A stretch of 64,000 nt of DNA, taken from positions 4,383-68,382 of the forward strand of contig DATDFB010000034.1 of NCBI GenBank assembly GCA_036522835.1, read 5' to 3'. The DNA is from Thermoanaerobaculia bacterium. GTDB taxonomy: Bacteria > Acidobacteriota > Thermoanaerobaculia > Gp7-AA8. The translations under genes and the position numbers were made by a program. Below, piece after piece: positions 5,352 to 8,300 of the stretch. The notes beneath the pieces are model-generated. The model worked only from the letters and a program-made list of their open reading frames with translations. It was not told the origin of the DNA and did not search any database. The number at the start of each line of letters is the position of its first letter. Within the stretch, counting starts at the first letter, position 1.

Positions 5352-8300
5352 ATGTCCCTCGACCATTTCCATCCCGCCGTTCAACGCTGGTTTTCGGAGA
5401 CGCTCGGAACGCCCACCGCCGTGCAGCAGCGCGGATGGGCGGCGGTGCGCGGCGCGCGGCACACGCTGATCGCGGCGCCGACCGGTTCCGGCAAAACCCT
5501 GGCGGCCTTCCTCGGCGCGCTCGACGATCTCCTCGTCGAGGGCCTGCGCGCGCCGCTGCCCGACGAAGTGCGCGTCGTCTACGTCTCGCCGCTCAAAGCC
5601 CTAAGTGCCGACATTCACAAGAACTTGGCCGAGCCGCGGCGCGGGATTCGAAGGATCGCCGAAGAGATGGGCCTCGACGCGCCGCGCATCACCGCCGCCG
5701 TCCGCACCGGCGACACGACGCAGGCGGAGCGCGCGGCGATGCTCAAAAAGCCACCGCACATCCTCGTCACCACGCCGGAGTCGCTCTACCTCCTTCTCAC
5801 CGCGGAGCGCAGCCGCAACATGCTCCGTACCGCGCGCACCGTCATCGTCGACGAGATCCACGCCGTCATCGGAACGCGGCGCGGCGCGCATCTGGCGCTG
5901 ACGCTCGAGCGTCTACAGGCGGTAGCAAACGCGCCGCTCTTGCGCTTGGGACTCTCCGCGACGCAGAAGCCGATCGACGACGTGGCGCGCTGGCTGGCTC
6001 CGCAGTCCGACGTCGAGATCATCGACGAAGGCCACCGCCGCGCCCTCGACCTGGCCATCGAGATCCCGCGCTCCTCGGTCGAGACGGTGATGGCCAACGA
6101 GGTGTGGGAGGAGTACTACGATCGCCTCACCGCGCTGATCGGCGAGCACCGCACGACGCTCGTCTTCGTCAACACGCGCCGCATGGCCGAGCGCGTGGCC
6201 CGCCACCTCTCCGACCGCCTCGGCGCCGGCGCCGTGACGGCGCACCACGGCAGCCTCGCCAAGGAGACGCGCCTCGACGCCGAGTCGCGCTTGAAAAGCG
6301 GACAACTGAAAGCGCTCGTGGCCACGGCGTCGCTGGAGCTCGGCATCGACATCGGCCACGTCGACCTCGTCTGCCAGATCGGCTCGCCGCACCGCATCGC
6401 TACGCTGCTGCAGCGCGTCGGCCGCTCCGGCCACACCATTGCCGGTATGCCGAAGGGACGCCTCTTCCCCATCTCGCGCGACGACTTAGTCGAATGCGCG
6501 GCGCTCGTGCGCGAGGTCCGCCGCGGCGCGCTCGACGCCATCGTGCAGCAGGAGGCGCCGCTCGACGTGCTCGCCCAGCAGATCGTGGCCGAATCGTCGT
6601 GCGACGACTACGACGAGGACGCGCTCTTCGCGCTTTTCCGCCGCGCGCACCCGTACCGAAACCTCGATCGGAGCGACTTCGACGACGTGCTGCGCATGGT
6701 CGCCGACGGCTTCGCCACGAAGCGCGGCCGCCGCGGCGCGCTCGTGCACCGCGACGAGGTGAACCGCCGCGTCCGCGGGCGACGCGGCGCGCGCATGCTG
6801 GCCATCACCTCGGGCGGCGCGATTCCGGAGGTGGCGGACTACAAGGTCGTGCTCGAGCCGGACGATACGGTCGTCGGCACGCTCAACGAGGACTTCGCCA
6901 TCGAGTCGACCGCGGGCGACATCTTCCAGCTCGGCAATGCCTCCTGGCAGATCATGCAAGTCGCCGCCGGCACGGTGCGCGTGATCGACGCCAAGGGCGC
7001 GCCGCCGACGATCCCGTTCTGGCTCGGCGAAGCGCCGGCGCGCAGCGACGAGCTGTCGCGCGCCGTCAGCGAGCTCCGTGTGGAGTGCGCCGGCCAGGCC
7101 GGCGCTCTCACGGAGATCGGCCTCTCGCCCGAAGTCGCGCAGGAACTGGCCGCCTACCTCGACGATGCGCAGCGCGCCCTCGGCGCGATGCCATCGCAAG
7201 ACACCCTCGTCGCCGAGCGCTTCTTCGACGAAGCCGGCGGCATGCAGCTCGTCATCCACGCCCCGTTCGGCAGCCGCATCAACAAGGCCTGGGGCCTGGC
7301 GCTGCGCAAGCGCTTCTGCCGGCAATTCAACTTCGAGCTGCAGGCGGCGGCGACGGAGGACGCGATCCTCCTCTCGCTGGGGCCGCAGCATTCCTTCCCG
7401 CTCGCCGACGTCTTCCGCTATCTGCATCCCGCCACGGCGCGCGACGTCCTGGTGCAGGCCCTCCTGGCCGCGCCGGTGTTTCCGACGCGCTGGCGCTGGA
7501 ACACCACGGTGTCGCTGGCCATCCCGCGCAACCGCGGCGGGCGCAAGGTGCCGCCGCCGCTGCAGCGCGCCATGGCCGACGACCTCATGGCCGCGGTCTT
7601 CCCCGACGCGGCCGCCTGCCCGGAGAATCTCGCCGGCGACCGCGAGCTGCCCGATCACCCGCTGGTCAAACAAGTGATTCGCGATTGCCTCGAAGAAGCG
7701 ATGGACTTCGAGGGGCTGACGCGCGTGCTCGAGCGCATTCACGCCGGTGAGATCACGTGCCTGGCGCGCGACACGACGGAGCCGTCGCCGCTGGCCCACG
7801 AGATCCTCAACGCCAAGCCGTACGCGTTCCTCGACGATGCGCCGCTCGAGGAGCGCCGCACGCAGGCCGTGCTCACGCGCCGCACGACGGCGAGCGACCT
7901 CGGTGCGCTCGACCCGGCGGCGATCGAGCGCGTGCGCGACGAGGAGCGCCCCGACCCGCGCGACGCCGACGAGTTGCACGACGCGCTGCTGACGTTCGGC
8001 TTCCTCGTCGACGGCGAGGTGGAGTCGCCGTTCTTCGAGGAGCTCGCCGCCGGCAAACGAGCTGCACAGGTCCCTCTCCCCGCAAGCGGGGAGAGGGTGG
8101 CCGAAGGCCGGGTGAGGGGCGAATGTTTCCCGGATGGCGCCCCTCATCCGCCGCTTCGCGGCACCTTCTCCCCGCAAGCGGGGCGAAGGATCTGGGTGGC
8201 GGCGGAGCGAGCTTCGGAAGTCGCCACGATTCATGAGATCGATCTCGTCTCGCCGCGCCAACGCGCCTGGACGCGCGAGGAGGCGATCGTCGAGCTGTTG

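Follow-up and report, generated by a model that had tools for sequence, protein, structure and literature searches.

Two in-frame copies of a BoxC/triplex-motif palindromic dimer in a Thermoanaerobaculia genome and a candidate DUF559 nuclease partner

Introduction

The BoxC repeats of Escherichia coli, also named PIT or TM_ECO after their triplex motif (TM), were reportedly described by Bachellier in the 1990s and by Hoyne and Maher in 2000. We know of no origin, function or mobilising enzyme for these repeats. Here we analyze a 64-kb stretch of contig DATDFB010000034.1 from a Thermoanaerobaculia bacterium (the window, taken at its full length), in which a palindromic element of this kind occurs twice, in frame in the gene of an Lhr-family helicase and in frame in the gene of an STT3-like membrane protein. 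According to Holder et al. 2015 (PMC4666352), the G/C-rich TM_ECO motif, formerly BoxC or PIT, reads CCCTCNCCC-N3-6-GGGNGAGGG-N3-GGGNGAGGG, and 3610 TM copies are spread over 262 proteobacterial genomes. The same paper reports that E. coli K-12 holds 23 copies, all intergenic and five as inverted pairs, that TM numbers range from 29 in E. coli 55989 to 1 in strain IHE3034, with none in Salmonella, that TM sites are tied to local genomic instability, that small deletions occur in palindromic TM pairs, and that earlier work cited there had found PIT/BoxC to have neither promoter nor terminator activity.

Two further groups of palindromes resemble the element in some respects. The Rickettsia palindromic elements (RPE; Ogata et al. 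2000) and the intragenic repetitive extragenic palindromes (REP), ERIC sequences and miniature inverted-repeat transposable elements (MITE) (Di Nocera 2013, PMC3733652; Delihas 2007; PMC10969869) are likewise palindromes of ~100-150 nt lying in frame in unrelated housekeeping genes, where they add a peptide at permissive sites, are absent from orthologs, and frequently have replication or repair genes as hosts. They differ from the element studied here in unit architecture (here a three-block triplex motif), in host phylum, and in the CGTC/GTAG tags that are missing here, and about half of the RPE copies are intragenic as against only ~3% in the present family. The likeness to RPE is one of behavior alone, that is, in-frame palindromic insertion in a host that is here of the Acidobacteriota type. 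The element is not new in kind but a variant of the BoxC/triplex-motif family; in frame in two genes, it behaves as the Rickettsia elements do. The other group comprises the REPINs, which are REP doublets, with their RAYT transposases, and the REPtrons (Bertels and Rainey 2011; Nunvar 2010). These share with our element the inverted doublet that forms a long hairpin, a scattered non-autonomous population, and a small single gene bracketed by inverted repeats, which is RAYT there and DUF559 here. Unlike RAYT, which is an HUH-type Y1 enzyme, the product of the bracketed gene here is a Vsr-like PD-(D/E)XK nuclease, GTAG is absent, and the mobilising role is only putative.

Results

Two copies of a BoxC-like palindromic dimer

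Repeat copies were sought in the window by motif searches and with an nhmmer profile of related copies. The profile matched 8074-8191 (copy 1, E 5.7e-28) and 51516-51615 (copy 2, E 5.8e-17), and neither the profile nor the motif searches found a third copy in the 64 kb. The palindrome of copy 1 runs on beyond its profile match to the ends given in Table 1. The two copies are ~85% identical across ~95 nt: copy 1 contains two CCCCGCAAGCGGGG hairpins and a GGGTGAGGGGCG / CGCCCCTCATCC inverted repeat, and copy 2 has one hairpin and the same central repeat, lacking a 27-nt terminal hairpin that is present in full orthologous copies. An earlier sequence-only reading of this DNA had described a structured element, a hairpin plus an inverted repeat, occurring twice at these positions, and the number, positions and motifs all hold. 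It had also taken the element for a repeat family of its own, with in-frame insertion. A distinct, dispersed and inserting family it is, but the reading missed both the truncation of copy 2 and the membership in a described family.

That membership rests on the block sequences, by which the element is an inverted pair of BoxC/PIT/TM units in a lineage variant. Along a TM unit, the pyrimidine block CCCTCNCCC is followed by a loop and the purine block GGGAGAGGG, and a linker then leads to the second purine block, GGGTGAGGG; a regular expression for the three blocks in this order retrieved the two units of copy 1 and the intact unit of copy 2. The blocks agree with the pattern of Holder et al. 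and with the sequences in the Table 1 of that paper (PMC4666352), near-identically and in the same order, and the BoxC pair of E. coli K-12 at 164539-164639, between hrpB and mrcB, aligns with the window copies in block order and architecture. Further likenesses are the occurrence both as single copies and as inverted pairs, a probably multi-copy distribution that is mostly intergenic outside the window, the small deletions in palindromic pairs, and the lack of a known transposase.

The differences are equally clear. Loop 1 has 8-9 nt here instead of 3-6, and the second loop of 3 nt is replaced by a mini-hairpin of 12-16 nt, which in this lineage carries compensatory G-C/C-G flips. The second loops of 271 units fall into two length classes, ~3 nt and 10-20 nt, and relatives with the 3-nt linker in Asticcacaulis, Roseiarcus and Acidobacteriota align block for block with the window copies, bridging the two forms. 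The hosts are Acidobacteriota (Thermoanaerobaculia), beyond the reported proteobacterial range. In the window the copies lie inside genes and are translated; those of E. coli K-12 are all intergenic (PMC4666352). The DUF559 association and the three-way covariation described below are likewise absent from what is accessible of Holder et al. (PMC4666352).

Copy 1 folds into a single hairpin of ~60 bp, at -49.6 kcal/mol as DNA (z -6.75) and -97.3 kcal/mol as RNA (z -8.2), and none of 200 shuffled sequences equaled either value. The inner ~16 nt of the central spacer differ from copy to copy. Relative to their host genes, the two copies show opposite central asymmetry. Rfam returned no match at gathering thresholds in the whole window, and at E up to 10 it gave only chance miRNA-like hairpin matches in 7900-8400. 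The word 'structured' describes a DNA palindrome here; we found no support for an RNA function in Rfam, where no family matched.

Table 1. Positions of the element copies, their parts, the host genes and the second repeat family in the window.
Feature	Position	Strand	Details
Host gene 1, Lhr-family helicase, 1353 aa	5352-9413	+	Pfam domains either side of insert
Copy 1, complete dimer (palindrome with termini CAGGTCC...GGATCTG), in Lhr	8067-8194	+	nhmmer 97 bits; single-hairpin fold; empty ortholog DNA
Copy 1, left TM unit	8072-8118	+	triad state C/G/G
Left unit, C-stem	8072-8080		CCCTCTCCC
Left unit, loop	8081-8088
Left unit, G-stem1	8089-8097		GGGAGAGGG
Left unit, mini-hairpin linker	8098-8109		TGGCCGAAGGCC
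Left unit, G-stem2	8110-8118		GGGTGAGGG
Copy 1, central spacer between units	8119-8140	none	GCG/CGC ends lengthen central stem
Copy 1, right TM unit	8141-8189	-	CCTTCGCCC / CGCTTGCG / GGGAGAAGG / TGCCGCGAAGCGGC / GGATGAGGG; triad state T/A/A
Host gene 2, STT3-like membrane protein, 561-aa open reading frame	50674-52359	-	insert in a variable loop with predicted membrane segments on either side
Copy 2, truncated dimer inside STT3-like gene	51516-51615	+	antisense to gene by central-hairpin asymmetry
Copy 2, intact TM unit	51518-51568	+	CCCTCGCCC / CGCTTGCG / GGGAGAGGG / TGGCGCCGAAGGCGCC / GGGTGAGGG
Copy 2, second-unit remnant	51587-51615	-	G-stem2 CCGGATGAGGGGCG (minus strand) and mini-hairpin GGCGCTGCGCGCC; hairpin part deleted
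Second palindromic family, seven copies	7077-7137, 28420-28480, 41431-41467, 46979-47045, 51856-51928, 55730-55798, 62453-62525		unrelated to the BoxC-type element

Both copies are insertions that are read in frame

Lhr orthologs, gathered with the full-length protein as query, lack the insert at 95%, 92% and 86-88% amino acid identity and read KRAGRTG-NLWVAAER where the window protein has 39 additional residues. At the DNA level, two orthologs, 95.4% and 90.9% identical in nucleotides, have empty alleles, and where the former has 20 nt (GCCGGCCGCACCGGCAACCT) the window has 131 nt, a net gain of 111 nt. From its absence in 95%-identical orthologs it follows that copy 1 is recent and private to this lineage.

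The STT3-like site has a longer record. Among orthologs at 85-88% identity the same site is filled or empty: P0122 and P0125 carry the full element, while P0123, P0124, P0126 and more distant orthologs are empty and read AYLAWRGSR. Partly deleted alleles are that of the window, in which copy 2 has lost 27 nt in frame, and P0127, in which half is missing; among the loci, it is L121 that lacks half the element, in frame. The filled alleles are of one origin, since they share both junctions, and all of them lack 21 nt of ancestral sequence. Even so, they are scattered over the gene tree, as in P0125 (filled) and P0126 (empty), which are 93.5% identical in nucleotides with a local fall in identity upstream of the site. 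The spacers of the element differ as well, the spacer of locus L119 being the reverse complement of that of L117, and the stems are perfectly conserved among four alleles of genes that are 78-88% identical. The scattered alleles and the spacer differences point to exchange between lineages by recombination, together with gene conversion or inversion of the spacer. As judged from these alignments, the STT3 copy is the older one, polymorphic among relatives and eroding by in-frame deletions in the manner reported for E. coli BoxC pairs (PMC4666352).

The possibility that the empty alleles are remnants of deletions was rejected. KRAGRTGNL in Lhr and AYLAWRGSR in the STT3-like protein are conserved across many lineages down to ~66-77% identity, and the empty alleles are therefore ancestral. 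The ortholog alignments that the sequence-only reading had proposed as a check thus show both segments to be insertions, and the protein-level conservation in repeat-free taxa that it had named as contrary evidence was not found, since in both genes the closest orthologs lack the insert.

In Lhr, the DEAD, Helicase_C, WH_Lhr and DEAD_assoc domains lie before the element and WH3/WH4_Lhr after it, all in one frame. The insert sits in a linker, 0 to >100 aa long depending on the ortholog, that joins DEAD_assoc (aa 613-815) to WH3_Lhr (aa 1058-1141). The STT3-like protein has an identical database entry, P0121, which starts 4 codons later than the open reading frame, and in distant orthologs the insertion site is a variable loop. 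Because third-position G+C is ~0.9 in the same frame on both flanks of each element, both copies are translated, copy 1 in Lhr as ~39 aa (VPLPASGERVAEGRVRGECFPDGAPHPPLRGTFSPQAGRR, the Lhr frame reading ..PLPASGERVAEGRVRGECFPDGAPHPPLRGTFSPQAGRR..) and copy 2 in the STT3-like protein as ..WRAAPDEGRHPAGIAPHPAPSAPPSPRKRGEG... The earlier claim that both reading frames stay open across the element is therefore correct, on the strength of the domains on both Lhr flanks and of the third-position composition. The SPRKRGEG-type peptide that it attributed to the element does occur in the STT3-like protein (..APPSPRKRGEGSFF..), but MAPLIRRFAAPSPRKRGEG belongs to another frame of copy 1 and not to that of Lhr. 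The two genes read the element in different frames. On each strand of the element a TGA stop occurs in one of the three frames, leaving 4/6 frames open, and it is these two stop-free frames per strand, the net gain of 111 nt, a multiple of three as any surviving length change must be, and the length-variable sites that keep the copies readable.

The family is dispersed and rarely lies in frame in genes

Scanning a genome collection with the central hairpin revealed full-length relatives at 80-91% identity in metagenome-assembled genomes of Acidobacteriota/Thermoanaerobaculia and relatives of lower identity in Alphaproteobacteria, for example in the isolate Asticcacaulis benevestitus. The family occurs in these two groups and in other phyla. 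Matches to the central-hairpin pattern in Streptomyces and Kitasatospora were set aside as unrelated, consisting of the hairpin only without the full element.

The sequence-only reading had asked whether intergenic copies outnumber those in genes, and outside the window they do. The genome-derived Acidobacteriota copies are mostly intergenic or at gene ends, and a metagenome scan, which gave 129 copies at 120 loci (30 dimers and 99 partial copies or monomers), contained three in-frame intragenic copies among the 95 that lay far enough from contig ends to be classified. About 97% of the family is thus not in-frame intragenic, whereas both copies in the window are intragenic. The three hosts are a GT4-like glycosyltransferase, a DnaE-like polymerase and PurL. 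The element in the glycosyltransferase (locus L234) is 91% identical to copy 1, has the same GGATCTG end, and is read in almost the same peptide and frame as in Lhr. In-frame insertion is a recurrent but rare fate of the family, and the two out of two in the window are unusual, on a small number.

The three blocks change together

The right unit of copy 1 departs from CCCTC / GAGGG / GGGTG in each of its blocks in a matched way, reading CCTTC / GAAGG / GGATG, so that its triad is T·A*A in place of C·G*G. We examined 177 metagenome units that had been retrieved with A or G allowed at two purine-block positions and with the pyrimidine block unconstrained. The triad was T/A/A in 100, C/G/G in 61 and mixed in 16, so that 161/177 were matched. 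Both states occur on shared sequence backgrounds and in every loop-length class. That C/G/G and T/A/A are two old subfamilies is not supported: background distances between the classes equal those within them, and identical backgrounds are shared.

The 33 dimers comprise 16 with one unit of each state, 13 with C/G/G in both, and 4 irregular ones; the 16 mixed pairs recall the rule of unequal partners, type A with type B, given for E. coli by Holder et al. The second purine block follows the hairpin of its own unit and not its partner in the central stem, and when the long hairpin is folded, invariant G·T wobbles appear in 8/8 aligned copies. As a comparative pattern, this covariation would be exactly what a triplex or a three-segment recognition predicts. 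Shared descent, with the states co-inherited as heterodimers, may be an alternative source.

A DUF559 nuclease gene recurs between inverted units

In 1.76 Mb of TM-containing loci, neighboring TM units enclose 14 gaps of 250-3000 nt, and of the genes that we inspected there the one that recurred was DUF559 (PF04480, E 1e-30 to 1e-39). The loci concerned, L039, L149, L207 and L245, had been fetched for their TM motifs and not for DUF559. Five of eight DUF559 genes lay between or right beside TM units. L245 (twice) and L149 have the gene exactly between a plus and a minus unit, L207 has it within a duplicated pair of units, and in L039 it adjoins a dimer. The units at these genes belong to the long-linker variant that is also that of the window, and the linker in L149, TGGCCGAAGGCC, is identical to that of copy 1. 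The pairs bearing the gene are T/A/A + T/A/A, a combination that was not seen without it.

A sample chosen on DUF559 alone (tblastn against plasmids and chromids, 12 loci fetched) had TM units within ~100 nt in 5/12 loci. They lie on both sides of the gene in Azospirillum lipoferum, Sinorhizobium meliloti and Synechocystis and upstream of it in Methylobacterium aquaticum and Shinella; Neisseria and Deinococcus were doubtful. In two control regions of 50 kb, TM-type hairpins occurred at ~1 per 10 kb outside the DUF559 neighborhood, and three stood beside each DUF559 gene. In E. coli K-12, a degenerate TM hairpin overlies the 3' end of ycjD, which is a DUF559 gene, and TMECO #9 is 168 nt away, while the 5' side of ycjD has an unrelated hairpin and no TM unit.

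DUF559/YcjD is a PD-(D/E)XK nuclease related to Vsr (PMC1189080), and a Caulobacter DUF559 protein is reported to cause DNA damage and an SOS response in vivo (PMC12907096). The searchable literature held nothing that ties DUF559 or ycjD to BoxC.

Two observations on individual DUF559 loci are recorded here. At the ycjD locus (L247, NC_000913 1351000-1352300 of E. coli K-12), the ycjD stop codon lies inside the degenerate TM hairpin CCCTCGCTCTTTCAGGGAGAGGGTGA, and a duplicated fragment of the ycjD 3' end stands between TMECO #9 and ycjD (330-380 vs 437-480). On a Sphingomonas parapaucimobilis plasmid (NZ_CP155755.1, 67228-67623; L252), a DUF559 gene with no TM units nearby is wedged into an NAD(P) transhydrogenase cluster, between the alpha-subunit gene and the next gene, of the proton-translocating transhydrogenase family. 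This looks like the placement of a selfish gene independent of the repeats.

Other repeats in the window and at the host genes

A second palindromic family (TGGAGTGCGGCGGCCATGCCGCCGCTGTGAGAGCGGCGGCATGGCCGCCGCACTCCA; TGGAGTGCGGCGGCCATGCCGCCGC...) has seven copies in the window (Table 1). Comparison of the window repeats showed it to be unrelated to the BoxC-type element, in agreement with the sequence-only reading. Of these, a strong one (88% to the reference) sits within the STT3-like gene, again in frame (..ACRGSDSGGMAAALQ..), and orthologs at 85-88% are without it. A weak copy lies inside Lhr, and peptides of this type (ECGGHAA) also occur at the Lhr linker in other lineages.

The Lhr linker holds still other material. 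Where the window protein has aa 900-950 (about 8050-8200), orthologs P0245-P0284 from other Thermoanaerobaculia show at least four further inserts, unrelated and of repeat origin, namely HRQECLCH...NVAQTLLSV (sometimes in tandem), ECGGHAA/ECGGKAA, HPERSEGPVASGAARESTDPSPSTRL and PGDSAQRGWALQTLPVGPSGAGPNPR. This site is a hotspot for insertion or else an unusually tolerant position, and several repeat families have landed in one and the same linker of this repair helicase. An Lhr fragment, P0002, carries an insert, IPSVSEGSGRAGADDNVPPDARVPRYARED, at another position, and STT3-like orthologs have low-complexity inserts elsewhere in the protein (SLSLLRTGFDGEGAPASRGSLAEPVLSERGARVEGLG in P0132, GEGSPAGW in P0126). 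To judge from these proteins, in-frame repeat-derived inserts seem to be common in these genomes.

Within and around Lhr, stretches of its 3' end (9202-9275 and 9369-9414, including the stop region) are duplicated at 13089-13206, ~3.8 kb downstream, at 96-97% identity (D7, D17); part of the gene may have been duplicated there, or a second, related gene may end there. An inverted pair at 8760-8796 and 28632-28668 forms a GGACAGGCA...TGCCTGTCC hairpin of 89% complementarity (I17); its first arm lies in Lhr (..GGGQALMPV..) and is possibly a third repeat type in this gene. Directly upstream of the open reading frame at 4584-5294 and of Lhr, 4299-4567 is filled with dense direct repeats of 21/42 nt and an inverted repeat of ~99 nt (77-88% complementary; D4, I1, I2). 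Elsewhere, a tandem array occupies 41037-41446 (43-nt period, ~9-10 units, 92-93% identity; D1), and 56221-56369 has two 68-nt copies, 88% identical and 81 nt apart, of a GACGGGTGACAAGG...CACCCGTCACCTGTCACCCGT palindromic motif (D12, I12).

Discussion

We conclude that both copies are probably dispersed BoxC/TM dimers of non-coding origin that are tolerated in frame and decaying, with DUF559 as a putative partner; in the window they are most likely tolerated selfish DNA in permissive protein regions. The course of events that we propose starts with an imperfect palindrome of ~125 nt, made of two inverted BoxC/PIT/TM units, which would have landed in the inter-domain linker of Lhr and in the loop of the STT3-like protein. 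The copies probably survived through having a stop in only one of three frames per strand, adding a net 111 nt, and lying at sites that tolerate extra residues, and they are now translated as Pro/Gly/Arg-rich inserts of 37-39 aa, probably without a selected protein role. By analogy with RAYT and REPINs, the arrangement unit, DUF559, unit would be the autonomous form, and the dimers non-autonomous derivatives similar to MITEs or REPINs. The nuclease would mobilise or seed the dimers, possibly by recognizing the hairpin or a triplex with the conserved G·T mispairs.

A number of points weigh against this conclusion. The window loops of 8 and 12-16 nt fall outside the published N3-6 and N3, and Holder et al. 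(PMC4666352) report for E. coli TM neither a link to mobile elements nor a triplex in vivo. The filled/empty comparisons of Lhr and STT3 show no target-site duplication, and the loss of 20-21 nt of target at both sites, with 111 nt gained at each, fits no known transposition chemistry. No TM units were near DUF559 in 5/12 of the sampled loci (~40%). The link of DUF559 to this genome is indirect, because the window and the ~130 kb of syntenic relatives examined contain neither a DUF559 gene nor a transposase. The adjacency could equally come from DUF559 genes homing into TM dimers, or from TM units accumulating around small selfish genes. Finally, the neutrality of the protein inserts is something that we infer from distribution and decay.

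A wider proposal, possible but somewhat doubtful, is that the BoxC/TM repeats stem from a widespread REPtron-like cassette with a DUF559 gene (YcjD-type, Vsr-like), found across Proteobacteria, Cyanobacteria and Acidobacteriota, of which they would be the terminal repeats and the non-autonomous offshoots. The covariation of the three blocks would then mean that a triplex, or a three-segment fold that the nuclease recognizes, is selected in vivo, the G·T mispairs would be a possible substrate of the Vsr type, and in-frame copies such as those of the window would be by-products.

The dimers may also have moved without a dedicated enzyme, by template switching, illegitimate recombination at the hairpin or triplex, and homologous recombination between lineages, with the DUF559 adjacency as a secondary effect of fragile sites. 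We consider this rather unlikely. The missing target-site duplication and the replaced ~20 nt at both sites are what it would lead one to expect, as are the scattered STT3 alleles with their local drop in identity (P0125 and P0126), the inverted spacer of L117 and L119, and the instability of TM sites without mobile-element association (PMC4666352). It leaves unexplained the near-identical units across phyla, the 91%-identical copies at unrelated loci (L234 and copy 1), and the fact that unrelated taxa have DUF559 precisely nested between inverted units. Copying driven by homology to the target is not supported either: scored against the element, the replaced 20-21 nt did no better than 30-70% of windows drawn at random from the host genes, that is, the target is no more element-like than chance.

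Mobilisation in trans of a classical REPIN or MITE, by a RAYT (Y1 of the IS200/IS605 type) or a parent insertion-sequence transposase elsewhere in the genome, is improbable in our view. The inverted doublet resembles that of REPINs, intragenic REP dimers are documented, many in replication or repair genes, and acidobacterial Y1 transposases are flanked by long inverted repeats (Di Nocera 2013, PMC3733652). However, the GTAG or CGTC by which such hairpins are recognized (PMC3733652) is missing, the termini here being CAGGTCC...GGATCTG, ..CAGGTCCCTC.. and ..GAAGGATCTG.., and the inverted termini come without a target-site duplication in both filled/empty comparisons. Between TM units, only DUF559 recurred in more than one locus, the other open reading frames having been inspected by eye and no dedicated Y1 search made. 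Least probable is an insert kept by selection for a function, either as an adaptive peptide module of the protein or as a structured RNA or DNA element that acts in cis within the mRNA by pausing translation, providing an RNase III site or terminating transcription internally: the very stable RNA hairpin (-97 kcal/mol), the perfectly conserved STT3 stems and the frame shared by Lhr and the L234 glycosyltransferase would fit it, but gene conversion from other copies explains the stems equally well, the nearest orthologs of both genes do without the insert, the two genes differ in frame and central asymmetry, the copies erode by deletion, ~97% of the family lies elsewhere than in frame in genes, Rfam has no match, and PIT/BoxC lacked promoter and terminator activity in earlier work cited in PMC4666352.

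Taken as tolerated and decaying BoxC/TM dimers, the two copies extend the phenomenon of translated selfish palindromic DNA, as in Rickettsia, to the BoxC/triplex-motif family and to Acidobacteriota. The parts most worth following are the DUF559 association and the three-way covariation. The latter provides comparative evidence on whether the triplex fold matters in cells, a question that direct probing has left unsettled. Through the former, in which several phyla have DUF559 consistently nested between inverted TM units, a repeat family that has been an orphan for ~30 years gains a concrete candidate enzyme that is biochemically testable.

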